From the NCBI GenBank assembly GCA_015066345.1, contig SVOQ01000002.1, forward strand, positions 58,659 to 122,658: a stretch of 64,000 nt of DNA, in the 5' to 3' direction. Positions 3,207-50,390 of the stretch are shown here, piece after piece (the first letter of the stretch is position 1; the number at the start of each line of letters is the position of its first letter). Source of the DNA: Oscillospiraceae bacterium. Its GTDB lineage: Bacteria; Bacillota; Clostridia; Oscillospirales; Acutalibacteraceae. Position numbers and translations under genes: made by a program. Under the pieces are notes generated by a model. That model was given only the letters and a program-made list of their open reading frames with translations, searched no databases and had not been told where the DNA came from.

Positions 3207-3235
3207 AAAAAGAAGCCTCGCGGCTTCTTTTTTTA
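3207..3235. terminator. bidirectional intrinsic terminator (glnA on +; hflX 3' UTR on -)
   Basis: GAAGCC-TCGC-GGCTTC hairpin flanked by an A-run upstream and a T-run downstream. Confidence 0.8.
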
Positions 3236-3270
3236 ATGCGTAATTCATAATGCGTAATGCGTAATTAGAT

Positions 3271-3337
3271 GGGCAATTTTATAATGCCGACCGCAGGTCC
3301 CGATAATTACGAATTATGCATTAAGCATTTCGAATTA
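3271..3337. repeat. intergenic repeat module, copy 1 (partner at 25284..25346)
   Basis: ATAATGCCGACCGCAGGTCCCGATAATTA ... TGCATTAAGCATT ... CGAATTA. The same ordered blocks occur at 25291-25346. It ends exactly on the hflX stop codon. Confidence 0.8.
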
Positions 3338-4579
3338 AATAATATATTCTTCGTACTTCTCGAGTACAAATATCTCTGCGGTAATATCCAACAACAACCC
3401 ATCTGCAGTATATTCTTCCGAATGCACGACGCCCGTTTTACGAAGTTCTGCACCTGCACCACCCATTGAAAAGGGTAAAAGTATTTTAACTCTTTTCCTT
3501 GTCGGAGGAAGTGCAGTGGCAATTTTTTCAAGAAGCAGAGGAAGTCCCTCCCCTGTTTTTGCTGAAACCCGTACCACATTTCCTACTAAAGGAATTGAAA
3601 TATCATTGGTTAAGTCGCATTTATTGAGGACTGTAATTGTAGGTTTATCACCGCATCCCAATTCCTCAAGAAGTTCATTTGTGACCCTGTAATGCTCGGA
3701 GCATTCATCACTTGATGCGTCGCAGATATTGAGTATTACATTAGCGTCCACGGCTTCGTCAAGGGTTGATTTGAATGCCTCAACCAATTTATGAGGAAGT
3801 CTTCTTATAAACCCAACGGTATCTATTAGAAGAACTGAATTACCATCGGGCAAAGTCAATGCTCTCGCAGTAGGGTCAAGGGTTGCAAAAAGTTTATTTT
3901 CCGCAAGAACTCCTGCATCTGTAAGAGTATTCATTAATGTGGATTTCCCCGCGTTTGTGTATCCCACAAGGGCAACGGTAACTACTCCGTCTTTTTTACG
4001 TCTTTCTCTGTGACGTGTGCGTCTTTCGTCAAGGGCTTTCAAATCCTCGGTCAGTGCCGAAATTCTACGTCTTATATGTCGACGGTCAGTTTCCAACTTA
4101 GTTTCGCCGGGACCCCTTGTACCGATACCACCGCCGAGCCTTGACATCGAAGCACCTTTACCACCAAGACGGGGCAATGCGTACTTTAACTGAGCAAGTT
4201 CAACCTGTAATTTACCCTCACCCGAAAGAGCACGACCTGCAAAAATATCAAGTATAAGTGTTGTACGGTCAATAACTCTTACATCAGTTATAGTTTCAAT
4301 ATTCTTTTGTTGAGCAGGTGACAACTCGCCGTCAACAATAACAAGGTCGGGCTTTTCATTCTCACAAAACTCCGAAAGTTCTTCAAGTTTACCCCTACCG
4401 AGATATGTGCCGGGCTCGGGTGCTTCACGTTTCTGGGTCATTTCACATATAACCTCTGCACCCGCGGTTTTAGCAAGTTCCGTAAGTTCCGCCAAAGATG
4501 AGTCCACATCAAACTCACCCGTATCAACGGAAATTAACACGGCACGTTCCGCCTCAACTTTATTTTCATAAAATTCCAT
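3335..4579 (-). CDS. hflX: GTPase HflX
   Basis: 414 aa. GYTNAGKST P-loop, DTVGF, NKCD, and an N-terminal HflX-type domain. Confidence 0.9.
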   Translation of the reverse strand: MEFYENKVEAERAVLISVDTGEFDVDSSLAELTELAKTAGAEVICEMTQKREAPEPGTYLGRGKLEELSEFCENEKPDLVIVDGELSPAQQKNIETITDVRVIDRTTLILDIFAGRALSGEGKLQVELAQLKYALPRLGGKGASMSRLGGGIGTRGPGETKLETDRRHIRRRISALTEDLKALDERRTRHRERRKKDGVVTVALVGYTNAGKSTLMNTLTDAGVLAENKLFATLDPTARALTLPDGNSVLLIDTVGFIRRLPHKLVEAFKSTLDEAVDANVILNICDASSDECSEHYRVTNELLEELGCGDKPTITVLNKCDLTNDISIPLVGNVVRVSAKTGEGLPLLLEKIATALPPTRKRVKILLPFSMGGAGAELRKTGVVHSEEYTADGLLLDITAEIFVLEKYEEYII

Positions 4580-4604
4580 AAATTCACCAAATTATAAATT
4601 TATT

Positions 4605-4637
4605 AGAACCCTGTTCACCAACGGTAAACAGGGTTCT
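4605..4637. terminator. hairpin downstream of the BY-kinase gene
   Basis: AGAACCCTGTT/AACAGGGTTCT 11-bp stem. The U-tract is poor in the minus orientation. Confidence 0.5.
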
Positions 4638-4645
4638 TGTTTTGT

Positions 4646-6145
4646 TTATCTTTTCTTTTTGTGGTGTCTGCTTCCGTAGTAGTAGGATGAGCCATAGTAT
4701 CCGCCGTAACGGTTTGAGAAATAGCCACCTGCTTTTTCAGTAGCAATCTTAAGAGTACCTGTACCTGCACGGTTGTAGATACAACCCATAATGTCCGCTT
4801 TAGTTGTTAAAATATCACTTAAAGCGTACTCGATCTGAGGAATAGCAACTCTCTCTTCTGCAGCAACGAATACCATTGAATCAACATAGTTTGCAACGAT
4901 AGCCGCGTCAGCAACAACACCTGCAGGAGGACAGTCAACAATAACGTAATCGAAATTCTTTTTAGCCTCTGCAATAACCTGAGCAGTAATATCTGAAGCA
5001 AGTGTTTCAGAGGGGTCTGCAACAGCAGCGGATGAAATAAGAAGATAAAGATTATATTTTTCAATATATTTTACTGAATCTTCAAAAGATTTAACACCGT
5101 TTACGATATCGTAGATACCTTTTTCACCTTCGATATTGATACCCAATGTTTTGCAAACTGCGGGTTTTCTAAGGTCGGCGTCAATAAGGAGAACTGATTT
5201 ACCACTCTTTGCAAGAGAAAGTGCAATATTTGTTGAACAGGTAGTTTTACCTTCACTTTCAGTTGAACTTGTAACCGCGAATACTGAATAACCCTTTTTC
5301 AGTTTTGCGTTTTCAAATTTAGTTCTGATAAGTTTAAATGTTTCAATAAAGGGAAGACCAACGTTTCTGTCAGTAATAAGAAGACGTGCACGGTCACCCT
5401 TTTTCTTGCTTTTGATATTAGAAACCGTAGCAATAATATCAATATTACTGAAGTTATTCTTAATATCCTCAGTTGAGAGCAATTTATTCTGGATTTTTGC
5501 AGTAATAAGGATAATTATTATAGCAAGAGCCGCACCAATAATAAAACCTGCTGCAGTATAAAGCACTGTAGATGAGTCCGCCTCAAGTTTTGCTTTTGTA
5601 GCACTGTCAACAACTGTGATATGTGCTGTGGGGAAGTTTTCGTCGTTAACAATTGTATGGTAAGCACTCTCAATAGCAGTAGCAACGATATAAGCAAGTT
5701 CTTCATCGGTTGAAGTAACCTTAATATTAACAATCAATGAATCTGTAACGTGTTCAACACTCATCATATTACGGAGTTGGCTTTTTTCATATTCCACACC
5801 CGTTTTAGCAGTAACTTCATTCTGCACTGCAGTAATAAATCCGTCACCGTTCTGCATAAGTTGTTTTAAAGTGTTAGCAATTACGGCGGATGCCTGCGCA
5901 TCGCTGGCGCTTGTCTGCCCCGCACTTGTACCTACAATGTTTTTGTCCTTATTGGAAACAGCTAACATAAGTTTTGAAGTATATTGCTCCGTATATGTTA
6001 TTTTTGCAATACTGAAGCCACTGACACAGAATATTACAACAAAAATAACAATAAGCCACCATTTACTGAGAACTTGGCGTAAAATCTTGAGAATGGGAGC
6101 TAAGCCAATATCCTCATCATGGGTTCTTTTTTCTTCGTAAGCCAT
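4646..6145 (-). CDS. polysaccharide biosynthesis tyrosine autokinase (fused Wzz-like transmembrane modulator and BY-kinase)
   Basis: N-terminal TM plus chain-length-determinant-like region. Walker A SSTESEGKTT. C-terminal Tyr cluster YGGYYGSSYYYGS. Confidence 0.8.
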   Translation of the reverse strand: MAYEEKRTHDEDIGLAPILKILRQVLSKWWLIVIFVVIFCVSGFSIAKITYTEQYTSKLMLAVSNKDKNIVGTSAGQTSASDAQASAVIANTLKQLMQNGDGFITAVQNEVTAKTGVEYEKSQLRNMMSVEHVTDSLIVNIKVTSTDEELAYIVATAIESAYHTIVNDENFPTAHITVVDSATKAKLEADSSTVLYTAAGFIIGAALAIIIILITAKIQNKLLSTEDIKNNFSNIDIIATVSNIKSKKKGDRARLLITDRNVGLPFIETFKLIRTKFENAKLKKGYSVFAVTSSTESEGKTTCSTNIALSLAKSGKSVLLIDADLRKPAVCKTLGINIEGEKGIYDIVNGVKSFEDSVKYIEKYNLYLLISSAAVADPSETLASDITAQVIAEAKKNFDYVIVDCPPAGVVADAAIVANYVDSMVFVAAEERVAIPQIEYALSDILTTKADIMGCIYNRAGTGTLKIATEKAGGYFSNRYGGYYGSSYYYGSRHHKKKR

Positions 6146-10232: not shown

Positions 10233-11030
10233 TTAATCCACTCTGAACCTTATATATGTTCTGTCGTCAAAAGACGTACAGTTTTTTTGTACTCCCTTGG
10301 TTGAACGGTAATCACCGTCACAAAGGGGATTTGTTGTCAATTCCTGTTTTAATTTTTCTTCGCTTTCTTCTAAAGTCCCGCAAAGTTCGGGATAACCGTC
10401 ACTTGCTAAAACTATTTCGTCACCGGTTTTCACCTTATGTATAACAATGTCTTTTTCGTGTACGAATGCACCGTTTATAACGCCGTAAGCGAATCTTCCC
10501 TCACCATTAGCAAAAATACTTTGCTTTTTAATTACTGGTAAAATAAACTCTCTGCCAAGGTCATTTTCTGAAAGTTCTTCATCAGTAGTACCCTCGAAAC
10601 GTACCATTTCAAGCACAAGGGCTCTCATATCCGAAACTATACGGTCAATTTCCTTACTATGAGTAAACACTTCACCGTTTATAATGCACTGACAGTCGCC
10701 TATACTCCAGATTTCGTGATGATGGTTACTGTATATTATAACACTTGCCGCGGCACTTCCGCCATTATTGTATTCGTCGCAAAGTTGCCTTATCTTTTCG
10801 GTTAAAATTCGTGTGGCTTCAAAAGCGTCAATATCCAAATTAAATTCGGCTACCGCTTCACAAATAAGCCTTGCCGCCACTCTGCCACCTGTTTCACCAC
10901 CAAAAAGAATCGTATCTTTTGCAGTAACTCCATCTGCGACAACTATAAAATTTTCGTTATAAAAAAGGAAATCCTCACAAAGGCTTTCGTCGGGTTTCTT
11001 GCCTTTTATAAACTGTTCCAAAATTCTCAT
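10233..11030 (-). CDS. PP2C-like phosphatase domain protein
   Basis: VVADGVT and LASDGYPE metal-site-like motifs. Start moved to MRILEQ (GGGGGA Shine-Dalgarno 6 nt upstream). Confidence 0.5.
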   Translation of the reverse strand: MRILEQFIKGKKPDESLCEDFLFYNENFIVVADGVTAKDTILFGGETGGRVAARLICEAVAEFNLDIDAFEATRILTEKIRQLCDEYNNGGSAAASVIIYSNHHHEIWSIGDCQCIINGEVFTHSKEIDRIVSDMRALVLEMVRFEGTTDEELSENDLGREFILPVIKKQSIFANGEGRFAYGVINGAFVHEKDIVIHKVKTGDEIVLASDGYPELCGTLEESEEKLKQELTTNPLCDGDYRSTKGVQKNCTSFDDRTYIRFRVD

Positions 11031-35791: not shown

Positions 35792-36751
35792 TTAATATGC
35801 AATAACAAATTCGTCTTCGCAGTCGATACCAACTTCGGCATCAATACCCATAGCTGAAAGACTGAGAATACAGGGAGCCTGAACATAAAGAGCTACAAGG
35901 TTACCTGAAGCATCGATTGTTGCTTTGAGTGTACAGGGGTCGTAGTCAAGTTTGATGTTTGAAATCTCGATAACGCCTGCAACCGCATCAGTAATTGTCT
36001 TTTCTTCGATAATAGAAACTGCTGAACCGATACCGCTACCTGCCTTGGGGTTGGACTCGGCTTTTGTAACGATGGTAACAATAGTATTGTCGCCGTCTTT
36101 CTGAACATCTACCTTATCAACAGCACTTGCATCAAGAGTACAGTTAATACCCTTGGGAGGAAGGTCGTTTTTATCCATATCAACGGGAGTTGTATCTTCT
36201 TTCATGAAAGTACCCATAAGGCTCTTAGCAATACTTGAAAGCATACCCGCTTTAACGTGACCCTTATAGTTGGAAGCGTTAGTTCTTACACGTGTAACTT
36301 TAGCTGCAGATGACTTTGCTTTATTAAGAGCGTCAACATACATTTTAAGTCCATCCTGCTGTGAAGCACCTGCGTCCTGAGAGCCGGCGTTATTATTACC
36401 TGCGGGTGTGTTACTATCCGCAGAGGAACCACCGTTTGAGCCACCGTTTGAGCCACCATTTGAGCCACTATTGGAAGAACCTCCGTTTGAACTGCTACTT
36501 GAACCGCCGGGTGTTGTTGAAACGTAACCACCGTTGGAAGAACCGCTATTAACATAACCGCCGTTATTTGAGTTATTATTATGCTCTTCAATCTGCTGCA
36601 TCAATGCCTTTTCTCTGGCCATATTATTCTGAGCTGCTTTGAGCGTAAATACAGAAGAAAGAATATTTGTAGTAATAACTGTCATAGCAACACTCACTGC
36701 CGCAATACAAATAACTAACTTCTTGATAGGTGTCATCTTCATTACATGCAC
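35792..36751 (-). CDS. membrane-anchored/secreted protein with a Gly/Ser/Asn low-complexity linker, function unknown
   Basis: N-terminal TM. The (SNGG)n tract is encoded by 12-nt tandem repeats. Start is ambiguous among three Met codons. Confidence 0.55.
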   Translation of the reverse strand: MHVMKMTPIKKLVICIAAVSVAMTVITTNILSSVFTLKAAQNNMAREKALMQQIEEHNNNSNNGGYVNSGSSNGGYVSTTPGGSSSSSNGGSSNSGSNGGSNGGSNGGSSADSNTPAGNNNAGSQDAGASQQDGLKMYVDALNKAKSSAAKVTRVRTNASNYKGHVKAGMLSSIAKSLMGTFMKEDTTPVDMDKNDLPPKGINCTLDASAVDKVDVQKDGDNTIVTIVTKAESNPKAGSGIGSAVSIIEEKTITDAVAGVIEISNIKLDYDPCTLKATIDASGNLVALYVQAPCILSLSAMGIDAEVGIDCEDEFVIAY

Positions 36752-39124: not shown

Positions 39125-39685
39125 TTAAAATATACTTTGGAAAACTGAAAGCACGGGAAGAACCCAACCAAAAACATAGGGAAAACAAACGCCGTAAGCC
39201 ACCGCAAGTAAGAAAGTAAGCGAATACTTTTCGAGGCAGGACATTACACAGAAAAGTGCGAAAAACGGTGCGAAAATTATTTTCAAAAACACATTTTTTC
39301 TACCGTAAACGCTATCTTTGAAAGCCAACATATCCTCGAATGACGGTGCACAGTTTGCGGCAAAGGAAATACCCAACCATAAAAAGAGATATGAGAGTAC
39401 GTTACCCGTGTCACCGATATAAACAAGTTGGTATGCAGAACCCGAAAGGAAGTAGGTACTAAGAATAAGGTTCATCGTAAAGGGAAACCAACACATAAAA
39501 AATGATTTCCAAGGGTTTTCGGCAAGAAGTTCGTGCTCAGTATGACCGCAGAACTCAGAGTATTTAAACGCTCTTTCGTCGTAGACGGCGATTTTACAAA
39601 CACGGCACACCAACAATTCCCATAATTTTCTGAAAAATGCACCGGGGAATGTAATAATACGGGTAATTACATAGATTAAAGTCAT
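39125..39685 (-). CDS. membrane protein, function unknown
   Basis: 4-5 TM segments. ATGA overlap with the upstream TPR gene. Confidence 0.5.
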   Translation of the reverse strand: MTLIYVITRIITFPGAFFRKLWELLVCRVCKIAVYDERAFKYSEFCGHTEHELLAENPWKSFFMCWFPFTMNLILSTYFLSGSAYQLVYIGDTGNVLSYLFLWLGISFAANCAPSFEDMLAFKDSVYGRKNVFLKIIFAPFFALFCVMSCLEKYSLTFLLAVAYGVCFPYVFGWVLPVLSVFQSIF

Positions 39686-41133
39686 TCTACATCACCTGAC
39701 CCTTCCGTAAACAATTGCTCTGCGGTAATTTCGCCGAGAAGGTAATCATTTACTCTACCCGAAACGGAAAGACCGTACATTTCGAGAAGTGATATTGTTT
39801 CGTCAACAGTTTCCGTGTTACCCAGCTCATTTTCAATAACAATTGATGTATAGTAAAGTATACCGTAGCTTTCGTAAGTCAAGGCTTCATCAATTACGGT
39901 TTTAGCCTGTTCCACGTCACCTTTAACCACAAGTGCCATTGCCTTAAGTCTTAAAACTTCCGCATTCTGGGGGTCGGACTCAAGGGCTTTATCCGCCCAT
40001 TCAATTGCCTTATCTGCATCCCCCGAAAGTCTTGCAATAGTCGAGTGAAGACTATATCCGTCAGGGTCCTGTCGGTCAGCTTCAATAAGTTCTTGCGCAA
40101 GTTTTTCGGCAGTTTCAATATCCCCCGAATTTATTGATACAAGAGCATATTCATAAGCGTAAAGCCACAGATAATCGGGGTTAGCTTCATACACCTTTTT
40201 CAGGTATTCCTGAGCCTCATAGGTTTTACCCGAAGAATAAGCAAACATATACTGACAAAATCTTATCATAGCTTGGTTATAAACTACTTCTTTCACTTTG
40301 CCGTCAACTGTTTTAATCTCTACGGTAGCACCCGAAAGAGCCTCAATTTCTTTCATAATACTGTTGTACATTGTGGTATTATCGGCACTGTACTGTTGAT
40401 ATTCTTCCTTATTGACAATATCATAAAAACCTTGCATTGTAGCGTAAAGTACAAGACTTTCGTTACCGATATTTTTATATTTAGTATATTGGGGCATAGG
40501 AAGAATACTGTCATCAAAGCCCTTTGAAATGCGGTCTGCAACCTCTGTCATAGATGTGGAGCCATCGGACATCTGTATAAATATGGCTTCGGCACTTTCG
40601 AAATATAATTTACGGGCATTTACCTCTTTATTTTCGAAATAATCTATCGCTTCGTCATAAGCGGTTTTAGCAGAGGTAATATTCCCCTTTGATAAATGGT
40701 ATTTTGCCTCATAAGCCTTAGCGTAGCCATCTACATTCTGCCAGAAGCCACGCATAGCAATAATACCGAGAACACCGATAGCGAATATCAAAAGAATATT
40801 AGTAAATTTAAAAGGACGATTACGTAATTCATTGAGACACTCTTCGCATATACCATCTTTACCGTTTTCATAAGCTTCACCGCAAAGTTCACATATAAGT
40901 TCCGGTGTGTCCTCTTCATCGGTAGTGCCGTCCTCAGCTATATCGCCATCTTCAGTTTCAGTAATTTCCGATTCGTCAGTACTACCACTTTCAAACTCCT
41001 CGGTGGTTTTAGCCAATTCTTTTCTGAAAAGCTCCGCGAGAGCCTCTAATTCTGCATTAAGCTCCTCGGCATTTTCAGTTTTTTCCATATTTTCATTGTT
41101 TTCGGGATTTTCTAAAATCTTGTTGTCTTCCAA
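39682..41133 (-). CDS. TPR-repeat protein with an acidic N-terminus, Cys4 zinc-ribbon and one TM
   Basis: TTG start 7 nt after an AAGGAGG Shine-Dalgarno. CELCGEAYENGKDGICEEC. TPR-like helices in the C-terminal half. Confidence 0.65.
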   Translation of the reverse strand: MEDNKILENPENNENMEKTENAEELNAELEALAELFRKELAKTTEEFESGSTDESEITETEDGDIAEDGTTDEEDTPELICELCGEAYENGKDGICEECLNELRNRPFKFTNILLIFAIGVLGIIAMRGFWQNVDGYAKAYEAKYHLSKGNITSAKTAYDEAIDYFENKEVNARKLYFESAEAIFIQMSDGSTSMTEVADRISKGFDDSILPMPQYTKYKNIGNESLVLYATMQGFYDIVNKEEYQQYSADNTTMYNSIMKEIEALSGATVEIKTVDGKVKEVVYNQAMIRFCQYMFAYSSGKTYEAQEYLKKVYEANPDYLWLYAYEYALVSINSGDIETAEKLAQELIEADRQDPDGYSLHSTIARLSGDADKAIEWADKALESDPQNAEVLRLKAMALVVKGDVEQAKTVIDEALTYESYGILYYTSIVIENELGNTETVDETISLLEMYGLSVSGRVNDYLLGEITAEQLFTEGSGDVE

Positions 41134-41240
41134 GGAAAAACCTCCTTTGAAAAATATGTTTTTATTCTATCACCATTACGATGAAATTTCAAATAAAATC
41201 ATACATTTCTCAGGAGGTTTACAAAATATTTACTTTTTAG
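41078..41240. repeat. 163-bp perfect direct repeat, copy A (native 5' end and promoter of the TPR gene)
   Basis: Base-for-base identical by eye to 43273..43435. Confidence 0.9.
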
Positions 41241-41306
41241 TTTTTTATCGATGGATTTTTAGATCATAAAATGTTGAAAAGAGTGAAAATTCAAAGGATT
41301 ACGATT

Positions 41307-41390
41307 CAATCACAGAACCGTCCCCTGATTGGTCCCAGAACCGTCCCCTGATTGGTCGGTCCCCTGATTGGTCCTCCCCTGATTGGTCCC
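41307..41390 (+). repeat. REP-like array: CAATCACAGAACCGTCCCCTGATTG followed by three progressively truncated ..CCCCTGATTGGTC units
   Basis: Read directly. Confidence 0.85.
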
Positions 41391-41400
41391 TGTCTTAATT

Positions 41401-42282
41401 TTATTTGAATTCTCTGTCTATGTAGATTTCAACATTCGCACTTTCGGCACCTATCACCACAGAGAATTCTTTGTCTTTGGCATTTTCGATTTCAATTGTT
41501 TGTTGAGTGTTAACATCAACTCGTTGATATATTTTTGAATCGAGTAGTATAACAATTTCACAATTGCCGCTATGAACCTTGGTATCAAAGTTTAGAATCA
41601 GTGTATCTGTTTTTCCGTATGATGTCTGTATTACTTTAGTACCTGTCATACATTCCATTGTAAACTTTATATTATCATAATCATGCATAGACGCTTTAGC
41701 TCCTGATTTTTCACCAGAAGTTGCATACACAGGTCTACGACCAAAACTCGAAGTGTTTTTATACAAAAGTGTTGAATCATCAATTGTTTGTAAGTCGTAA
41801 TTATCGGGACCGTTTGTATCTTCAATATGGCGTTTATCGTTTATGCTAACCCAAACCAAAACCACCGCAAGTATAAAAATCACAAAGGATATCAAAACAC
41901 TCCAAAAAGCTATCAAAAATTTCTTTTTGTGTGCTATTTTTTCAGGAGCATTGATATCGATTGGTGCTGATTCAAATAACCTTTTCTGTATGATGATTAA
42001 AACCGTATTACACAAAGCAGATGCAATATACATTGAAACAATAAAGAATATCTTGCCACCCTCGGGGTAAATTATATAAATCAAGCCCGTAAGAAACACA
42101 TCAATAACGCCTATATACTTAATAAAAGATGAAAGCTTTGTTCTGCCTTTTTCTTTTGCATATTTTGATGTAAGATAGCTTAAAATATACGTTGACAAAA
42201 ACCCAAAAACTGAACTAATTGCCTCAATTATAAAAAGTTGCTTTTTTCCGAGTTTCTCCAATAATTTATTTAAAATCGACAT
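41401..42282 (-). CDS. cassette cargo: membrane protein (about 4 TM) with a C-terminal beta-rich domain, function unknown
   Basis: Start moved to MSILNK (AGGAGG Shine-Dalgarno). No motif I recognise. Confidence 0.5.
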   Translation of the reverse strand: MSILNKLLEKLGKKQLFIIEAISSVFGFLSTYILSYLTSKYAKEKGRTKLSSFIKYIGVIDVFLTGLIYIIYPEGGKIFFIVSMYIASALCNTVLIIIQKRLFESAPIDINAPEKIAHKKKFLIAFWSVLISFVIFILAVVLVWVSINDKRHIEDTNGPDNYDLQTIDDSTLLYKNTSSFGRRPVYATSGEKSGAKASMHDYDNIKFTMECMTGTKVIQTSYGKTDTLILNFDTKVHSGNCEIVILLDSKIYQRVDVNTQQTIEIENAKDKEFSVVIGAESANVEIYIDREFK

Positions 42283-42393
42283 CGAATCCAAATCCTCCTG
42301 TATATGGTCCTGCCGCCGGGGCAGTTGTTTTAAACTTACCTTCCTCAACATCCCAACTAATACTACCGCCGATTGTTCCTACGTAACCACAAA

Positions 42394-42418
42394 CAATCAG
42401 GGGACGGTTCTATGATTG
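42394..42418 (-). repeat. REP-like 25-mer in inverted orientation (CAATCAGGGGACGGTTCTATGATTG)
   Basis: Reverse complement of the unit at 41307 and 43210, with one substitution. Directly after the transposase stop codon. Confidence 0.85.
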
Positions 42419-42419
42419 G

Positions 42420-43166
42420 TCAGATTTTCTGAACAATATAATAACTTACCCCTGTCAATCTGCTGATTTGTCGAATAGAAATTCCCTTTTCTTTAAAAAG
42501 TTTTAAAAACTTATTTCTTTTAGCAATCGGCAAGGCTTGAAATTCTGAAACACTTTCGCATTTCGAATATTTTTTAATAATCTTGTGAGCCTCTTCGTCC
42601 GTAACTCGCTTTATATTTGATTCTTCCACATCAATACACATATCAGAACTTGGTTCGTTGTTGTATTCAATAAACGATTCCTTTTTCATCAAAGAAAAAG
42701 CTTGTTCTACATCAACAATTTGTGGCTCTTCCAAATATTCGTTATAACTACTATATCTGTAATCCTCTAACTTTTTACACAAACCGGCTTTCACCGGATT
42801 CTGATGAATATACCTGATTACTGTTAAAAAATACGAATCATCTTCAACCGGCTCACTTTTAAATCTATCTTGGAACAGATGACCTTTTCTTTGATATTTA
42901 ATGTTATACCAATAAACGTATTTGCTGCCAATTCGTTTAAAAACCTGACCTATTGTTTCATTATTAAATCTCATTAACAAATGAATATGATTACCCATCA
43001 GGCAATACGCATATATTGTATATCCGCATATTGCCTGATAGTTTTTTAATACTTCGACGAATTTTTGATAATCTTCTTCGTCTTCAAATATTTGTTGTTG
43101 GTTTATACCCCTCAACATAATGTGATATGTTTCACTTTGGCTTGTTTTTCGTGCTTCTCTTGGCAT
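42420..43166 (-). CDS. REP-associated tyrosine transposase-like (Y1 HUH, IS200/IS605 superfamily) with a C-terminal HTH
   Basis: MPREARKTSQSETYHIMLRGINQQ, LMGNHIHLL (HUH) and RYIHQNPVKAGL (catalytic Tyr region). Confidence 0.8.
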   Translation of the reverse strand: MPREARKTSQSETYHIMLRGINQQQIFEDEEDYQKFVEVLKNYQAICGYTIYAYCLMGNHIHLLMRFNNETIGQVFKRIGSKYVYWYNIKYQRKGHLFQDRFKSEPVEDDSYFLTVIRYIHQNPVKAGLCKKLEDYRYSSYNEYLEEPQIVDVEQAFSLMKKESFIEYNNEPSSDMCIDVEESNIKRVTDEEAHKIIKKYSKCESVSEFQALPIAKRNKFLKLFKEKGISIRQISRLTGVSYYIVQKI

Positions 43167-43209
43167 TTTCATCACCCAAAACAACTATATCACTTTGCTC
43201 ATCAATTGT

Positions 43210-43269
43210 CAATCACAGAACCGTCCCCTGATTGATTTGATTGTCAATCACAGAACCGTCCCCTGATTG
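43210..43269 (+). repeat. two tandem REP-like 25-mers (35-bp period)
   Basis: CAATCACAGAACCGTCCCCTGATTG at 43210-43234 and 43245-43269. Confidence 0.9.
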
Positions 43270-43272
43270 ATT

Positions 43273-43328
43273 GTTTTTTCCATATTTTCATTGTTTTCGG
43301 GATTTTCTAAAATCTTGTTGTCTTCCAA
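43273..43328 (-). pseudogene. truncated duplicate of the TPR-gene 5' end
   Basis: Same Shine-Dalgarno, TTG start and MEDNKILENPENNENMEK. The frame then reads into REP DNA and stops after about 8 more codons. Confidence 0.7.
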
Positions 43329-43435
43329 GGAAAAACCTCCTTTGAAAAATATGTTTTTATTCTATCACCATTACGATGAAATTTCAAATAAAATCATACA
43401 TTTCTCAGGAGGTTTACAAAATATTTACTTTTTAG
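43273..43435. repeat. 163-bp perfect direct repeat, copy B (contains the thiT stop codon and a duplicated TPR-gene promoter, Shine-Dalgarno and first 18 codons)
   Basis: Identical to 41078..41240. Confidence 0.9.
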
Positions 43436-44018
43436 ATTTCAAAATTTTCAGATCAGGTGATTTCAAGTCAAATACTGCACCTAAAACTGCACAACCTATC
43501 ACGGTAATAATAAGCTCGGGCAACATATATCCGCCGTTATATTCCAACGAATATAACCATACACCCTTTGCACCGTTGGTGTAGTCACCCCATATTGTAA
43601 CACCGCTTATGAAGTGGCACAAAAATCTTATAACGGACACCACTGCACCGCCCAAAGCAATGGAAACGGGTTGGTTTTTTATAACATTTCTGAACATACC
43701 GCCAAGTCCTAATGAACCGAAAGCGATAATGTAGTCCGCTAAAAGCAAGATCAAGTAAGCCACTATACCGCTTACGTATGCGAAGTTTCCGAGACCGAAA
43801 AGGGTCTGTATCACGCCCATTGCAAGGCCCGAAAAGATACCCCACTTAACACCGTAACGGTAGGAGATAACTACCATCGGCACCTGACTGAAAATGGTTA
43901 CACTGCCCCCAAAGGGGAATTTAACCACCGCAAGTTCTGAGAGAATTGTTGAAAGAGCCAACATCAACGCGGTTTCAACAATTCGTCTTATTTTTTGTTT
44001 TTTTGTTAAATTACTCAT
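43425..44018 (-). CDS. thiT: energy-coupling-factor S component for thiamine
   Basis: 197 aa, 6-TM profile. Preceded by a TPP riboswitch. Confidence 0.8.
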   Translation of the reverse strand: MSNLTKKQKIRRIVETALMLALSTILSELAVVKFPFGGSVTIFSQVPMVVISYRYGVKWGIFSGLAMGVIQTLFGLGNFAYVSGIVAYLILLLADYIIAFGSLGLGGMFRNVIKNQPVSIALGGAVVSVIRFLCHFISGVTIWGDYTNGAKGVWLYSLEYNGGYMLPELIITVIGCAVLGAVFDLKSPDLKILKSKK

Positions 44019-44035
44019 AAAAATTCCTCCGAATT

Positions 44036-44176
44036 AAAATCTCCCTACGGCGGTAACACTGCCATAGGGAGATACTTCCAGAGTTATTTTTCCTACGGCG
44101 GCATTATCCGCATCAGGTTATTAGGGTCAGAAAAGGAATGTTTTCTATCTCAGCCGACGTCCGTCAGCTCCCCTGT
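44036..44176 (-). promoter_or_regulatory. TPP (THI-box) riboswitch with a terminator expression platform
   Basis: Minus strand reads GGGGAGC...GGCTGAGA...GACCCTAATAACCTGATGCGGATAATGCCGCCGTAGGAA. It is followed by the TCTCCCTA...TAGGGAGA-TTTT hairpin just before the GGAGG Shine-Dalgarno. Confidence 0.9.
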
Positions 44177-44221
44177 TTTATTTTCGGCACGAAGCGTAGC
44201 TACTTTTCTTCGAGCAAGTTT

Positions 44222-44249
44222 ATTATAGTACTATTTTGTCTTTTGTCAA
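44222..44249 (-). promoter_or_regulatory. consensus sigma-A promoter for the riboswitch-thiT unit
   Basis: Minus strand reads TTGACA, 16 nt, TATAAT. Confidence 0.7.
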
Positions 44250-44255
44250 GAAAAA

Positions 44256-44978
44256 TTATAAATTCTTCGCCCTGAAAGGTACATTTTCTCCCGTAATTCT
44301 TCTTGAAATTCTTAAAAGAGCCTGATTTCCTTTGCTCTCATAAGGAATTTTTCGACCCTCAACGGAGTTGTAAATCCCCTGTGATTCGGGTATAACTCCC
44401 AAAAATCTTGCACCCACCGTATCAATAATTTCATCCACATTTATTGCTTTGTGAATTTTCTTATTGAATTTATTTACTACAAGACGCACATTGGAAATCC
44501 CCGCTTTGCGGACATTTCTTGCGGCATAAGATGCTGCCCTTATACTGATAGCATCGGGGGTTGAAATTATAATGCAACTGTCGGCAGTTTTTGAGGCAAG
44601 ATTAAATCCGCTTTCAAGTCCCGCCGGTGCATCAAGGAATATATAATCAAAATCCTTTGCAAAAGCTTTAAGCATATTCTCAAAACTTTCGGGAGTATAT
44701 TTATCATCAAAATCAAAGGGAGCGGGTAACAAATATAAGCCCCTGTCACCCTGTATAACTGCTTTTCTGTAATCGCAGTTACCATTTATAACGTCTCCCC
44801 AGTTATAAACGGTTTTTTCGGATACACCCAGAAGTATATCAAGACTTCTTACGCCAATATCCATATCCACGAGCAGAATATTTTTACCCTTTGACGCAAG
44901 AAGTTTACCCACACCGTAACAGAATGTGGATTTTCCTACACCGCCTTTAGCGGAAGCAACAGTAATAATTTTCATCAT
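44256..44978 (-). CDS. MinD/ParA-family P-loop ATPase
   Basis: Deviant Walker A SAKGGVGKST. 240 aa. Last gene of the mre-mrdA operon. Confidence 0.7.
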   Translation of the reverse strand: MMKIITVASAKGGVGKSTFCYGVGKLLASKGKNILLVDMDIGVRSLDILLGVSEKTVYNWGDVINGNCDYRKAVIQGDRGLYLLPAPFDFDDKYTPESFENMLKAFAKDFDYIFLDAPAGLESGFNLASKTADSCIIISTPDAISIRAASYAARNVRKAGISNVRLVVNKFNKKIHKAINVDEIIDTVGARFLGVIPESQGIYNSVEGRKIPYESKGNQALLRISRRITGENVPFRAKNL

Positions 44979-44984
44979 ATCACC

Positions 44985-47093
44985 TTAAGGTATAAGTGTA
45001 TTGGGTGTTTCCTGAACATCAAATTGAGTTTTCTGACTGAAGTAATAATTGTATATAGGTACTGCCGCCTGGCTTGTTTTACTACCTGTAAGGGCATTTT
45101 CCGCCACTATTGCTATTGCAATTTCGGGGTCATCATACGGTGCGAAAGAAATGAAGAAACCGTTGTTACAGTCCATAGTAACGCCCGACTCCGTAGTTCT
45201 TTTAAGCTGTGATGTACCCGTTTTACCCGCCGCATCAACTATACATTTACTGAAGTAGGTATTGCAAGAACTGTTTACAACAACATCTCTCATACCCTGT
45301 TTTACAATATTTATATTTTTCTCGGAAGCGTTAAGGGTATTTAACACTACCGGCTCAGTTTCGTATATAACCTCACTCATATCCGCAGAAAGGACGGACT
45401 TTATAATGTATGGTTTATAACGTGTACCGCCGTTGGCAATGGTTGCGCAGTAGTTCGCCAACTGCAAGGGAGTGAAAAGGTTATCCGACTGACCGATAGC
45501 CGCCTGAACCGTATCACCGGGGAGCCATACCTGACCCGCCGCCTCTTTGTTAGCGACACTTGCCAGCATACCCTCCGCCTCAGGAAGTTCAAGCCCTGTG
45601 TCCTGACCGAGACCGAGAAGGTTACAGTATTTATTCATTTTATCAATGCCCAGTTCCTTACCCATTTCAAAGAAGAAAATATTACAGGATTTTTCGAGAG
45701 CAGTTGTTACGTTAAGATAGCCGTGATGACCAAGGCATTTAAATGTCTGGTCTTCAAGCACGTAGGTTGCACCGCAATAACAAGCACTGTCGATAGTTAT
45801 TGCTCCCTCCTCCAATGCCGCAAGGGCGATGGCGGGTTTCATTGTCGAACCGGGAGCATATGCACTCTGAATACCTCGGTTCCACAAGGGGCTTTCCGTA
45901 TCCGCCGCAAGTTTATCATAATCTTCAAAGTATTTTGTAATATCGTAAGTGGGGAGTGACACACAAGCGAGAACCGCACCCGTATTACAATCCAGAACAA
46001 CTATGGCTCCGGCACTACCGAAATAGGAGGAATTTTTATTATCCTTAAGCATATCTTTAAGAGCCTGAGTTGCAACCTTTTGCATTCCCGAGTCAATAGT
46101 GGTTACTACCGTATTACCCTGCTCGGGTTTAGTAAGGTAATCTTCAATAACCGTGCCGTCCGAGGCTATGGTAGTAGTTTTAATACCGTTAGTACCTCTG
46201 AGGTAGCCTTCCATTGCCGCTTCAATACCGCTTTTACCGTATTTATCGTCAAGGGAATACGCGTTATTTTTAAGGGTGAGAATATCCGTTGCCGTAAGGG
46301 ATTCATCGCTTAATTTTTCATTAAGCAAGGTTTCCTCTTTAGCGTATTCATCCGCATTTATAGAGCCTACAACACCAAGAATATGTGAATATGAAATTGT
46401 ATCACTATACTCGCGGTAACTTACACTTTCGCTCTCAACACCCGGGTATGTTTCGCTCATTTCCATAATAATTGAAACGATCTCCGTAGGTACATCTTCG
46501 GCGAATGTATATGGGGATGTTACGGAGAATGAAAGATATTTCATACCGAAACATACTGAGGCAATTTTTCTTGCATCATTTCTCGAATACTCCTGAAGAC
46601 CGTATCTTTCAATAAGAGCATCAAGACATTCATCAGCGGTTGAGTCAGTCCCTTTTTCGAGTTCAAGCATATTCTCGGAAACCATATACTCGAATTCCTG
46701 AGTCTTGTCCTCATCGACTATAAGTTTACCGCCTTGATATTTCAACGGAAGTCGATCCGTCCATTCAATATCATTTTTCTCAAACAACTGAATCAATGAA
46801 TAAATAAGTTTATTTCTGTCCTCCTGATTCTTCGCCTCAGGGAAATCAGCATATTTAAACACAACGGAGTTACCCTGCCTGTTTGTAACAAGAGGGTTGC
46901 CGTTACGGTCAAGAATTTCGCCACGGGAAGCCTTCACTTTACTTGTGGACACGGCAAGACTTTTTGCAGCCGCCTTGTACTTGTCACCATTTACAATCTG
47001 AGTAACTGACAAAGCAATAATCAGAGCCACAAAAGCCACAGCGATAATTATTGTACCTGTTATTCTTCTTCTTTTTCGTAATTCAATAGACAT
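44985..47093 (-). CDS. mrdA: penicillin-binding protein 2 (elongasome transpeptidase)
   Basis: N-terminal TM, PBP dimerisation domain, STMKP, SCN and KTGT motifs. Confidence 0.9.
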   Translation of the reverse strand: MSIELRKRRRITGTIIIAVAFVALIIALSVTQIVNGDKYKAAAKSLAVSTSKVKASRGEILDRNGNPLVTNRQGNSVVFKYADFPEAKNQEDRNKLIYSLIQLFEKNDIEWTDRLPLKYQGGKLIVDEDKTQEFEYMVSENMLELEKGTDSTADECLDALIERYGLQEYSRNDARKIASVCFGMKYLSFSVTSPYTFAEDVPTEIVSIIMEMSETYPGVESESVSYREYSDTISYSHILGVVGSINADEYAKEETLLNEKLSDESLTATDILTLKNNAYSLDDKYGKSGIEAAMEGYLRGTNGIKTTTIASDGTVIEDYLTKPEQGNTVVTTIDSGMQKVATQALKDMLKDNKNSSYFGSAGAIVVLDCNTGAVLACVSLPTYDITKYFEDYDKLAADTESPLWNRGIQSAYAPGSTMKPAIALAALEEGAITIDSACYCGATYVLEDQTFKCLGHHGYLNVTTALEKSCNIFFFEMGKELGIDKMNKYCNLLGLGQDTGLELPEAEGMLASVANKEAAGQVWLPGDTVQAAIGQSDNLFTPLQLANYCATIANGGTRYKPYIIKSVLSADMSEVIYETEPVVLNTLNASEKNINIVKQGMRDVVVNSSCNTYFSKCIVDAAGKTGTSQLKRTTESGVTMDCNNGFFISFAPYDDPEIAIAIVAENALTGSKTSQAAVPIYNYYFSQKTQFDVQETPNTLIP

Positions 47094-47104
47094 ACAAAAA
47101 ACCT

Positions 47105-47635
47105 TTATTCATCTGCAGTTTTATGTGAATTATAAATCCACGATATGGGAAAATAGAAAACGGGGATAAATGCCAATGTGTAAATGCACGAAGGCAGATA
47201 AAAAGTAAATATCTGTCTTACTGATGCACCCGCACCATCGAAAAACAAATTTACAATTACGTAAATTACACAGTAACTTACAACCGAACCTGCACCGAGA
47301 ACAAGTGCCGTAAGAATATTGTTACGCATAAGTCGGATAATAAGCAAACTGCACACAACACATATCAGTAATAAAACAATGGAATTAAATCCGTCTTTAA
47401 CGGAACATATATCCCATAATATGCCCGAAACCGCACCGAAAATTGCCGCGGCAATTTCCCTTTCGAACATAGCAATACTTACGCAAAGAGGTAATAATAT
47501 AAATGCCCTTGAACCAAAAATATCGGGAAGTATGTACGGGGAATTCTGCACAAGTGCCACAAGTCCGATTATCAGAGCATACAAACCAAAACGAATGTAT
47601 TTTTGTTTACTGTTTCCGTAATGCAAGGGTATCAC
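47105..47635 (-). CDS. mreD: rod shape-determining protein MreD
   Basis: 176 aa polytopic protein between mreC and mrdA. Confidence 0.8.
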   Translation of the reverse strand: MIPLHYGNSKQKYIRFGLYALIIGLVALVQNSPYILPDIFGSRAFILLPLCVSIAMFEREIAAAIFGAVSGILWDICSVKDGFNSIVLLLICVVCSLLIIRLMRNNILTALVLGAGSVVSYCVIYVIVNLFFDGAGASVRQIFTFYLPSCIYTLAFIPVFYFPISWIYNSHKTADE

Positions 47636-47660
47636 CTCTCTTTATTTTTAATTTAATCTT

Positions 47661-48518
47661 TTAGTCCTTAATCTCGCCTTCGCCCTGACCGTCAAATGAA
47701 GTAATAACAAAAACTTCGCTTATACGGTCCAAATCCGCAAAGGGCTTAACCAACGCATAACAAGCGGATGAAACATCGTCAGTTTTAACCGCCGTAACCT
47801 CGCCGACAATAAGTCCGTCGGGGAATACTCCACCTGCACCCGAGGTACACACCACGCCACCTTTTACGATGGATGTAGATGAGTCGAGCCCGTAAAGTTT
47901 ACAAAGTCCCTGAGAATATAATTTATCCTCACCGCTTACGTAACCGTATTCACGTGTACCCGATTCAAAAACACCTATATTAACCCTTGGGTCAAGTACC
48001 GAATAAACCACGCAGGTTGAGAAATTGACCTTTTTTACAATACCCACAACATACTCACCGTATATTACAGGGTCACCAACCTGAACGCCGTCACTTGAAC
48101 CTGTATTAAGCACAAACGAGCCGTAAACATCCGCCGCATCCCTTGATATAACGGAGCCGTAACTGATTTCAAAATCGGTGTTTTTTTGTTTTATTCCGTA
48201 AAACTCCTCGTAAGCGTCAACCTTTTTCTTAAGGTCGTCGTAATCCGCAAGTTGTTTACGGTAGCCCTCTATTTCTTTCTTCAGGGCTTCGTTTTCCTCA
48301 ATATAAACCGAGGAAGACTTAAAAGCGGCGGAAACATCATTCAGATTATCCGATATTGCTACGGACAGTTTCTGAAGTGGTGAAAAAATCGTACCGATTA
48401 CTGATGTAAAGGGTGACGAGGCGTTGTGGCTTACTGCCGCACACAACACACCCACAAGAACTACCGCGGCTACTATCACAAGATTTTTGAATGTACCGCT
48501 CTGTAAAAACCTTTTCAT
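47661..48518 (-). CDS. mreC: rod shape-determining protein MreC
   Basis: N-terminal TM, coiled coil and beta-rich C-terminal domain. Position after mreB. Confidence 0.85.
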   Translation of the reverse strand: MKRFLQSGTFKNLVIVAAVVLVGVLCAAVSHNASSPFTSVIGTIFSPLQKLSVAISDNLNDVSAAFKSSSVYIEENEALKKEIEGYRKQLADYDDLKKKVDAYEEFYGIKQKNTDFEISYGSVISRDAADVYGSFVLNTGSSDGVQVGDPVIYGEYVVGIVKKVNFSTCVVYSVLDPRVNIGVFESGTREYGYVSGEDKLYSQGLCKLYGLDSSTSIVKGGVVCTSGAGGVFPDGLIVGEVTAVKTDDVSSACYALVKPFADLDRISEVFVITSFDGQGEGEIKD

Positions 48519-48530
48519 TTTCTCAGTCCT

Positions 48531-49535
48531 TTATTTTCTGTTGAATCCCAATAAATCTTTTTCAAGACAGATACCCGTACCTCTAACAACACAGTCGAGG
48601 GGATTTTCAGCAACATTAACGGGCATACCTGTTTCCGTTGAAATAAGTTTGTCAAGACCACGGAGTAAAGCACCGCCGCCTGTAAGAGTTATACCTCTTT
48701 CAATAATATCCGCAGAAAGTTCGGGGGGAGTTCTATCGAGAGTATAACGGATAGCATCGAGAATTTCATCAACAGGGTCTGCAAGTGCCTGACGCACCTG
48801 TTCACTGGTAATTTCAACTGATTTGGGAAGACCGTCAATAAGGTTTCTTCCCTTTATTTCCATAGCGGCTTCGCCCTCATAGGGGTAAGCAGAACCAAGT
48901 TTAAGTTTTATATCTTCTGCGGAACGTTCGCCTATAAGAAGGTTGAATGTTCTTTTTACATAAGAGATTATTGCTTCGTCGAAATTGTCACCTGCAACTC
49001 TTACGGATTTTGAAGTAACAATATCACCTAAGGATATAACCGCAACTTCGGATGTACCGCCACCGATATCAACAATCATACTACCCGTTGCCTCAAGTAC
49101 GGGAAGACCCGCACCGATAGCCGCCGCCATAGGTTCTTCAATAAGGCTTACGTATCTTGCACCCGCACTCTTAGCCGCGTCATGCACCGCACGTCTTTCA
49201 ACCTCGGTAACGCCCGAGGGTATACAAATCATAACTCTTGCTCTATTGAAGGGTGAACCGCTTATTGCTCTTTTCACAAAAGCCTTAAGCATATCTGCGG
49301 TCATATCAAAGTCCGCAATAACACCGTCTTTAAGAGGACGTACCGCAGTAATTGAACCGGGTGTTCTGCCTATCATTTTTTTAGCATCCGCACCAACGGC
49401 TACAACTGTTTTAGGGTTTGTTCTTTCATCCACCGCAACAACCGATGGCTCTCTGATAACTATACCTTTACCTTTAACAAATACCAGTGTGTTGGCTGTA
49501 CCGAGGTCAACACCAATATCCTGTGAAAACAACAT
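48531..49535 (-). CDS. mreB: rod shape-determining protein MreB
   Basis: Actin-fold motifs DLGTANT, DIGGGT and LTGGGALL. Confidence 0.95.
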
Positions 49536-49556
49536 ATATATACATTCCTTTCGGGA

Positions 49557-50390
49557 TTATTTTTTTCTTAATAGATATGTAACGAAGAAGATTATTGCCG
49601 AAACGGTAACAATCGTAGCACCCGCCGATGTGTCTGCGTAGAACGAAATCAAAAGTCCCGATACTGCAGAAACTAACGAAATTGCCACCGAAAAACCCAT
49701 ATACTGCCTTGAATTCTTAGCAATATTTCTTGCGGCTGCGGCGGGTAAAATGAGAAGTGAGTTTATAAGAAGGATTCCTACCCACTTAATTGAAATCATA
49801 ACAACAACCGCAACCATTATTACGAAGATATTTTCGTAAAGAGCTGTTTTTATACCGCGACTTGCGGCTAATTCACGGTTTACGGTTATAACAAGTAATT
49901 TATTGTAAATTAAAGACCATACAACAATTACCACTACAAAAGTTATAAGAAGATAAAGAAGTTCTTTTTTTGAAATACTTAAAATATCACCCACAAGGTA
50001 TGTACTGTATTTCGAGAAACTTCCTCCGTATGAAAGTACAAGCAAACCGATGGCTATACTCGTTGATGAAAATACACTTATAACCGTGTCCGATGAAGAA
50101 TTACCCCGATTTTTAACACGGGTTATTATAAGAGCCACCAACACGCCAAAGGCTACCAGGGAAATAATTTCATTTCTGATTCCTAAAAGTACACCTAGAG
50201 CGATACCCGTAAAAGCACTATGACCTAAGGCATCTGAGAAAAACGCCATTTTGTTATTAACTGCCATTGTGCCGAGAACACCCATAAGCGGAGCAATTAA
50301 AAGTACCGCCAAAAGGGCATTTATCATAAATTTGTAATCCGCCCAATGAAAGGGAATCACATTACCTAAAACGCTATATATTACGCTCAC
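49557..50390 (-). CDS. znuB: metal (zinc/manganese) ABC transporter permease
   Basis: ABC-3 family profile, 277 aa. Abuts the ATPase gene. Confidence 0.8.
   Translation of the reverse strand: MSVIYSVLGNVIPFHWADYKFMINALLAVLLIAPLMGVLGTMAVNNKMAFFSDALGHSAFTGIALGVLLGIRNEIISLVAFGVLVALIITRVKNRGNSSSDTVISVFSSTSIAIGLLVLSYGGSFSKYSTYLVGDILSISKKELLYLLITFVVVIVVWSLIYNKLLVITVNRELAASRGIKTALYENIFVIMVAVVVMISIKWVGILLINSLLILPAAAARNIAKNSRQYMGFSVAISLVSAVSGLLISFYADTSAGATIVTVSAIIFFVTYLLRKK

Follow-up and report, generated by a model that had tools for sequence, protein, structure and literature searches.

How did a segment of two neighbouring host genes come to be present twice around foreign DNA? This question is raised by a locus in the 64-kb window analysed here (the whole stretch of 64,000 nucleotides, from contig SVOQ01000002.1 of an Oscillospiraceae bacterium), in which thiT, encoding the S component of a thiamine energy-coupling factor (ECF) transporter, and a tetratricopeptide repeat (TPR) gene are separated by a 2,032-bp insert with a copy of the same 163 bp on either side. 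The insert is not a single element; it is a mosaic remnant of an Rhs toxin island, delimited by repetitive extragenic palindromic (REP) sequences. For the duplication itself we see about an even chance that the second copy would exist because a fragment of the island had carried a host flank and re-entered the site by homologous (Campbell-type) recombination. The repeated host segment is named D, with positions counted from its thiT end (D1..163), and sequences from other assemblies are denoted by L numbers. The features at the junction are as follows:

43425..44018, minus strand: thiT, thiamine ECF transporter S component, intact (Pfam Thia_YuaJ, E=1.9e-34).
43273..43435: D copy 2, continuous with thiT; its TPR-proximal end (D163) abuts a REP directly, by the same joint as in L001, L006, and L133.
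43273..43328, minus strand: truncated second 5' end of the TPR gene, 18 codons, running into the REP, with a predicted 26-aa fusion peptide.
41078..41240: D copy 1, continuous with the intact TPR gene; its thiT-proximal end abuts a 66-bp spacer.
39682..41133, minus strand: TPR-repeat gene, 483 aa, intact; its promoter-like site, Shine–Dalgarno sequence, start, and first 18 codons lie within D.

The two copies of D (41078-41240 and 43273-43435) are identical base for base over 163 bp, and the identity ends there, without extension by a single base on either side. On the minus strand, D starts with the final 11 nt of thiT, crosses the 96 bp between the genes, and takes in 56 nt at the 5' end of the TPR gene; the intergenic part contains the promoter-like site and the Shine–Dalgarno sequence, and the TPR part contains the TTG start and 18 2/3 codons. 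In-silico removal of 41241-43435 gives a sequence identical at 10,806 of 10,806 positions to a natural empty-site contig (L002/L147; ENA ERZ27248314). The first-pass annotation of this DNA had described a perfect duplication of ordinary host sequence, from which deletion of one copy would restore a clean thiT–TPR junction, and had proposed a search for natural empty sites in related sequences; the description is accurate on each of these points, and further empty thiT–TPR adjacencies were found in L004 and in L106, the latter from a species whose thiT–TPR junction is only ~77% identical. Because the same adjacency occurs in L004 and in the distant L106, the empty arrangement is regarded as ancestral.

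The insertion allele is real and polymorphic in the population. Its novel joints recur in independent assemblies, namely L001, L006, and L132 (three JGI samples) and L133 (another study), and among 23 contigs that encode the exact ThiT protein, at least 15 have the arrangement of the window, two are empty, two hold other islands, and four break inside D. The first-pass annotation had also taken the zero divergence between the copies to imply a very recent event. This argument is weak, in that D is likewise identical in strains that differ by ~2% elsewhere (L003, L154), the window arrangement is the commonest allele at the site, and a variant of the joint exists in L133, where the left boundary consists of one REP unit with a different linker, compared to two tandem units in the window.

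Within each copy of D (41138-41220 and 43333-43415) there is also an inverted repeat with 29-nt arms, in which AAACCTCC pairs with the Shine–Dalgarno sequence of the TPR gene (GGAGGTTT). This pairing, together with the promoter of D, is kept in L106 (1950-2060), from a species ~77% identical there, and the inverted repeat is probably a regulatory hairpin in the 5' untranslated region of the TPR gene, as judged from sequence. In D copy 2, the promoter and ribosome-binding site now face a REP and the transposase gene of the insert.

The insert has a GC content of 34.4%, compared to 39.5% for the window. It had been read at first as a unitary Y1-transposase cassette, a description that does not hold, as it is composed of an 881-bp module for a REP-associated tyrosine transposase (RAYT) and an orphan immunity gene with the 3' stub of a toxin gene. 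The REP is a 25-nt imperfect palindrome (CAATCAGGGGACGGTTCTGTGATTG), of which the insert contains five full copies and several truncated ones, and no copy was found elsewhere in the window; "REP" is the label used here, and terminal inverted repeat (TIR) would be an equally apt name. From the thiT side to the TPR side, the insert is made up as follows:

43205..43272: two tandem 35-bp units, each with a 25-nt REP (cores 43245-43269 and 43210-43234), forming the left boundary of the insert.
42420..43184, minus strand: RAYT/TIRYT-type HUH-Y1 protein, 254 aa (gene callers choose the ATG at 43172, giving 250 aa).
42394..42418: inverted REP on the 3' side of the RAYT gene, closing the 881-bp RAYT module together with 43205-43272.
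42266..42391, minus strand: 3' stub of an Rhs C-terminal toxin gene, ~36 codons plus stop, severed by the inverted REP.
41401..42282, minus strand: orphan immunity-type gene, 293 aa (the longest open reading frame (ORF) is 316 aa, from 42351).
41307..41390: REP cluster, comprising a complete REP, a second that is almost complete, and a stutter of 5' halves cut short.
41241..41306: 66-bp spacer, separating D copy 1 from the REP cluster.

The limits of the RAYT module (42392-43272, 881 bp) are set by homology to L093/L131 (98.5%), L092 (88.6%), and L103 (75%). The REPs at 43210-43234 and 43245-43269 are 93-96% complementary to that at 42394-42418, so that the RAYT gene has inverted flanks, and the same arrangement occurs in L131, L092, L103, L116, and others; inverted REP doublets of ~133 nt fold as long hairpins (-31.8 kcal/mol, z=-7.2). 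The encoded protein has an HUH motif (His66-Ile-His68) and a catalytic tyrosine (Tyr125, in YIHQNPVKAG). It matches Pfam Y1_Tnp (E=4.8e-15, 56.2 bits, cut-off 23) and narrowly passes the curated model NCBIfam NF047646 (81.5 bits, cut-off 80), and its C-terminal tail gives a weak match to HTH_23 (E=0.003, 17.8 bits, under the gathering score of 24.6); no sequence match was found in the PDB. As first stated, this is the sole recombinase-like gene of the insert: no integrase or other recombinase was detected among the ORFs and Pfam matches in 41241-43272. Nothing in the plasmid and phage collections matched the 2,032-bp insert by BLASTN.

Upstream of the RAYT gene, the 3' tail of the REP provides the TTGACA -35 box of a near-consensus promoter (43184-43212, minus strand; TTGACA-17-TATAGT, with TG), and therefore the repeat may double as the RAYT promoter. 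The coding region itself contains a palindrome with 20-nt arms (42997-43039). A misplaced repeat of this palindrome stretch lies directly past the inverted REP at the end of L133 (8784-8838), and could be an assembly artefact or a rearrangement.

Beyond the inverted REP, the stop codon of the toxin stub overlaps the start of the following immunity-type gene (ATGTCGATTTTAAATAA), and the full-length toxins of L154 and L157 have C-termini that match the translation of the stub (...GGSISWDVEEGKFKTTAPAAGPYTGGFGFDVDFK*). The 293-aa protein has four predicted membrane helices and a soluble C-terminal domain, and was assigned to no family in Pfam or NCBIfam. Its homologues in L154 and L157 (68 and 72% identity) follow full-length or orphan Rhs toxins immediately and overlap them; because these toxins have C-termini that align with the stub, the 293-aa gene is identified as an orphan Rhs immunity-type gene. 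By its sequence, the cargo has the arrangement by which Rhs/YD immunity modules are recognised, a gene directly 3' of, and often overlapping, the toxin coding region. Homologues (62-85% identity) are also present in L155 and L156, where they are stable chromosomal genes flanked by a 180-aa gene and RNase H, and neither a REP nor an Rhs gene is close by.

At the TPR end of the insert, part of the REP cluster (41330-41390) is a stutter array of truncated REP 5' halves (GACCAATCAGGGGA...), each with a different cut point, and similar arrays are found in L134 and L131; such arrays could arise from repeated abortive events at the REP. The adjacent spacer is kept in L003, L134, and L154, yet is fast-evolving. 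Local alignment of the spacer to the 3' end of thiT gave a score of 14, which was reached by 1.5% of 2,000 shuffles, and the spacer, which resembles a decayed thiT 3' end, may be what is left of a flank captured earlier.

Related strains have larger islands at the same site, and the insert appears on sequence comparison to be the leftover of an Rhs toxin island of this kind, which occupies the 3' end of thiT. In L131, a full Rhs island begins right after the thiT stop codon and encodes a 2,256-aa toxin, an immunity gene, the RAYT module, and an orphan toxin. L003 has a reduced island, in which the position 31 nt past thiT (x31) is joined straight to a REP, and a 12-nt repeat of the thiT 3' end (CTAAAAAGTAAA) is found on both sides. 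The L134 island has a cargo after the RAYT module that differs from that of the window. All three islands have the same right end, REP–spacer–D–TPR, and the spacer–D joint is common to the alleles of the window, L003, L134, L129, and L154. The flanks of L003 and the thiT surroundings of L131 are ~98% identical to the window, and arrays of displaced Rhs C-terminal fragments are present in the allelic loci L003, L131, and L157.

The comparison of L005/L131 with window positions 43400-50018 is itself a mosaic, with ~98% identity near thiT and >3.6 kb upstream, and 82-90% identity over the PBP2 and ParA-like genes; the latter stretch looks like a recombination patch beside an island hotspot. We considered whether L131 might represent another species with a horizontally moved RAYT module (98.5%), and dropped this idea since the low identity is limited to a 3-kb patch.

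The same cassette is also found away from thiT, and it takes host DNA with it. In L129, a cassette 100% identical to window positions 43231-41206 (2,026 bp), with differences confined to the leftmost REP spacer, sits between two Rhs genes; its right end consists of the spacer followed by D1..35, which abuts a REP doublet. L129 is from sample ERZ27248314, in which the thiT–TPR site is empty (L002) and has flanks 100% identical to the window. L154 has the order Rhs toxin–immunity homologue–REP–spacer–D1..251, again abutting a REP doublet; its source is the same metagenome-assembled genome (MAG) as that of L004, where the thiT–TPR site is likewise empty. Since host pieces of 35, 163, and 251 bp are found at the right end of the cassette, each closed by a REP, a flank of variable length travels with the cassette. 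The four novel joints of the thiT family (L003 x31, D35, D163, and D251) all lie 0-4 nt from the REP 5' boundary (CAATCAGGGG), and the identical cassette at two loci (window and L129) argues against the RAYT as an immobile gene. A search for the unoccupied L129 Rhs locus by means of its 226-aa neighbour recovered only the locus of another species. Scans of metagenome contigs for a sequence other than D at TPR codon 19, and for D163 followed by non-TPR sequence, gave no match; both negatives are uninformative, as the second joint exists in L001 and the contigs scanned do not include such sequences.

Host duplications beside REPs are not confined to thiT. The 18-nt REP core was found in >120 stretches of public ruminant-gut Clostridia MAGs among the matches listed, with several per MAG. 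In a survey for direct repeats ≥50 bp, eight of 120 REP-bearing 8-kb chunks had a non-REP direct repeat with one copy ending beside a REP, compared to 1.1 chunks on average, and at most 5, when REP positions were randomised (500 trials). L030 and L036 were dropped as host duplications, since L030 represents paralogous C-termini and L036 a REP-spacer repeat. Five of the eight are clean host duplications (66-239 bp, 93-98.5% identity), of which four are cut exactly at the REP boundary and one is 22 nt off:

L116: 163 bp, 93%; region 5' of rimP, with a RAYT gene in the insert.
L111: 187 bp, 97%; intergenic region 5' of a 307-aa gene.
L122: 237 bp, 94%; 3' end of a 481-aa gene plus terminator.
L124: 239 bp, 94%; 3' end of a 241-aa gene.
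L051: 66 bp, 98.5%; terminator plus 22 nt of a tRNA 3' end.

L116 appears to be a more complex version of the phenomenon in the window: 5' of rimP-nusA (1900-5710), it has nested REP-adjacent duplications of 121 bp (100%), 105 bp (99%), and 163 bp (93%), as well as a 441-bp tandem duplication of a REP and the 5' part of the RAYT gene. An Rhs core end was matched (using one query) in 16 of the 120 REP loci, so the association between REPs and Rhs genes is real, and the notion that REPs are always tied to Rhs genes is ruled out.

For the window allele, the re-entry of an island fragment by way of a captured host flank would proceed as follows. The REP upstream of the RAYT gene would be broken at its 5' boundary and joined to host position D163, in the 5' coding region of the TPR gene, and the resulting circular or equivalent intermediate would have the composition [REP–RAYT–REP–toxin stub–immunity gene–REP cluster–spacer–D1..163]. 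Homologous recombination within the 163 bp would then insert the intermediate into an empty thiT–TPR site; recombination within D accounts for the two perfect copies of D and for both host genes being intact. Intermediates with other end points could have entered other Rhs loci at REPs, which would explain the cassette with D1..35 in L129 and the module with D1..251 in L154. The direct repeats of D would also allow clean excision, restoring the empty site. In the simplest chain of events, the window allele would form, the D35 piece would be copied out into an Rhs locus, and the copy at the thiT site would be lost through D × D recombination. Campbell-type integration had been raised in the first-pass annotation, and it is the model best supported by the comparative data (D1..35 in L129, D1..251 in L154); the circle, the order of events, and the maker of the REP-boundary joint (RAYT, or host replication or repair at the REP hairpin) are what we infer.

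Several points weigh against this account. No circle, tandem intermediate, or "spacer–D163–REP" precursor was observed among the sequences compared, and the integrated state itself rests on short-read assemblies. That L129 and L002 derive from one genome is an assumption, and since L129 and the window allele are not interconvertible in one recombination, at least two events are needed in any scenario. In L073 and L102, the REP adjoins duplicated host DNA at the other side of the repeat, and a strict orientation of the REP joint was rejected on these two cases. No target motif is shared by the joints, the host sides of which read AAAC, GAAA, GTAG, ATAA, ATAA, CAAG, GATA, and TTCG. The possible microhomology at joints (AAAC, TGAGAAA) is just as compatible with template switching that needs no transposase.

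Template switching, or illegitimate recombination at a REP hairpin, is a possible but clearly weaker contender as the origin of the D163|REP joint; microhomology would guide the switch without any transposase, and the duplication would be a by-product of repair. One such route would be homology-facilitated illegitimate recombination on DNA uptake, with an island allele and an empty allele as partners, and a single event would turn observed alleles (the L003/L134 type and the L002 type) into the window allele. D160-163 (AAAC) and D29-35 (TGAGAAA) both match the REP flank in L131 (CTTGAGAAACAATCAGG), and GAACC/GACC occurs at the L051 tRNA joint, but these microhomologies are short and A-rich, and may be due to chance. 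Strong hairpins stall replication, and the REP doublets fold strongly (see above); however, four independent joints at 0-4 nt from the REP boundary are tighter than is usual for hairpin-stimulated slippage, and the linker triplets at the same D163 position differ (AAT in the window vs. GAC in L133). The REP-boundary joints may thus be due either to cleavage and joining by the RAYT or to replication or repair at the REP hairpin. It is improbable that the arrangement is an artefact of assembly, by which an empty chromosomal site plus a free 2,195-bp circle (insert plus D), or a mixture of strains, was rendered as an integrated form. D (163 bp) exceeds the maximum k-mer of MEGAHIT (141), contigs break at D23/D141 (L007, L142, L144, L149-151), and the integrated form and the circle plus empty site share one and the same de Bruijn graph; because D is longer than the assembler k-mers, short reads cannot fully separate the two states. 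Yet paired-end-resolved contigs from at least four samples give thiT–D–REP (L001, L006, L133) and spacer–D–TPR (L001, L132) rather than thiT–D–TPR, which favours integration, and the sole sample with an unbroken empty-site contig has the cassette elsewhere, attached to no more than 35 bp of D. In either state the reads must contain both novel joints, and therefore the biology would change little.

Target-site duplication in its classical form had already been set aside in the first-pass annotation, and rightly so, given the length of 163 bp and the presence of D pieces (35 and 251 bp) at other loci. A genuine but very long target-site duplication, for which RAYT–REP would cut the two strands ~160-240 nt apart and gap filling would copy the interval, is very improbable. 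Similar sizes do recur beside REPs, at 163 (window), 163 (L116), 187 (L111), 237 (L122), and 239 bp (L124), but such a process does not predict off-site D pieces at the right end of the cassette (L129, L154), and the same-site island alleles L003 and L131 are without a duplication of this kind; furthermore, we know of no HUH-Y1 chemistry that makes staggered double-strand cuts. We give least credence of all to D as the attachment-site repeat of an integrase acting in trans. The thiT stop codon is where islands at this site start, the L003 island is flanked by the 12-nt thiT 3' repeat, and the analogous L051 case involves a tRNA 3' end, all of which would suit an integrase; against this, the insert encodes none, D continues for 152 bp beyond the thiT stop, reaching into the following gene and stopping at a REP, and three lengths of the same segment are joined to REPs.

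A more specific proposal concerns the enzyme, and is speculative, being rather unlikely on present evidence: the TIRYT-type RAYT may work as an active transposase of a one-ended copy-out (rolling-circle-like) kind that releases circles with cargo and captured flank. Nicking would take place at the 5' boundary of the repeat, and termination at variable positions in the host DNA downstream; the circles would re-enter at other repeats, or by homology of the captured flank, thereby shuffling Rhs toxin and immunity cassettes, and the footprint would be pseudo-target duplications of 60-250 bp. If true, Group 1 RAYTs would have their first assigned activity, and polymorphic-toxin loci a new way of exchanging cassettes.

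The locus is built from known kinds of parts, and is more informative than first described. TIRtrons with TIRYT proteins (Di Nocera et al. 2013, PMC3733652) correspond to Group 1 RAYTs (Bertels et al. 2017, PMC5581495) and to TnpA_REP subclass 2.1 (Quentin et al. 2018, PMC6006769). For these, no evidence of mobility, cargo, or function was reported (PMC3733652, PMC5581495, PMC6006769); subclass 2.1 is said to be without REP-like neighbours (PMC6006769), and Group 1 RAYTs were reported in Clostridia and as the most insertion sequence-like group of RAYTs (PMC5581495). As in TIRtrons, the HUH-Y1 protein of the window is long and RAYT-like, and its gene lies between inverted repeats; the weak HTH_23 match may correspond to the helix-turn-helix tail of TIRYT proteins, and the GGGG-rich motif of the repeats, here GGGGACGG, agrees at 7/8 positions with the TIRtron consensus GGGGWSAS (PMC3733652, PMC6006769). 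As in TIRtrons, the repeats also occur elsewhere as singles, dimers, and clusters; unlike TIRtrons, they bound toxin/immunity cargo modules, and an identical 2-kb cassette is found at different loci in near-clonal backgrounds, with host flank carried along. The REPtron/REPIN-RAYT systems of Proteobacteria likewise have inverted cognate palindromes that flank a RAYT gene, and the ~133-nt inverted doublets fold into long hairpins in a similar manner. Classical REPINs number tens to hundreds per genome, are intergenic, and have a GTAG tag, whereas the repeat described here is found in one island within 64 kb, is without GTAG, and is tied to variable islands.

With regard to flank capture, IS91, ISCR, and Helitrons have Y2 or helicase-fused enzymes and defined ori and ter ends. 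The locus resembles these in having one end fixed at a terminus and the other variable in host DNA, with flank captured at one end and carried onward; it differs in having a RAYT-type Y1 protein, and the mechanism proposed here is read from anatomy. To our knowledge, no flank-capture activity of the rolling-circle kind has been described for RAYT-type Y1 proteins. As in Campbell integration of episomes or suicide plasmids, a circle with homology would give an insert between two direct copies, reversibly; unlike those, the proposed circle would be an excised fragment of a toxin island rather than a replicon or phage, with homology picked up from neighbouring host DNA. The immunity-type gene with a stub of its toxin is like the orphan toxin-immunity modules of Rhs/YD loci, but here the borders are marked by REPs or REP doublets rather than by Rhs core homology alone, and no toxin gene is left in the window allele, which has housekeeping genes on both sides. 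In Salmonella, REPs reportedly lie at the join-points of large tandem chromosomal duplications formed by REP × REP recombination (work of Shyamala, Schneider and Ames, 1990); a REP is similarly at the novel joint of the duplication here, but it is joined to host DNA that is not a REP, and the copies are separated by foreign DNA. Affiliation with IS200/IS605 was rejected, given that the repeats are inverted around the gene, the protein is ~100 aa longer, and the joints share no motif; an integrase-mediated island was rejected on the gene content of 41241-43272. A text search of the literature found no papers that link RAYTs with Rhs.

RAYT/TIRYT proteins are widespread, and here one is embedded in the Rhs toxin islands of ruminant-gut Clostridia, with REPs marking every module border and every novel joint. 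The defined joints, the predicted 2,195-bp circle, and the natural empty and occupied sites provide material with which to test DNA movement and toxin-immunity turnover. Repeats of 160-240 bp are also just above short-read k-mers, and will fragment or mis-thread metagenome assemblies at such loci.

Some minor observations concern the repeat and the neighbouring genes. The 5' half of the REP (ACCAATCAGGGGACG) resembles a conserved stretch of Rhs core coding sequence, e.g., ACCAATTTACAGGGCGACG, encoding TNLQGD (L003 7005-7030, L157 2185-2215), and some orphan Rhs fragments start at a degenerate REP half; this likeness may be chance, or homology that steers REPs to Rhs genes. A second ORF of exactly 316 aa (35792-36742, minus strand), with a signal peptide-like N-terminus and without a family match, was ruled out as a paralogue of the cargo ORF (best BLASTP E=0.12). 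Upstream of thiT there is a thiamine pyrophosphate (TPP) riboswitch (44072-44184, minus strand; Rfam RF00059, 62.7 bits), with a consensus promoter at 44222-44249.

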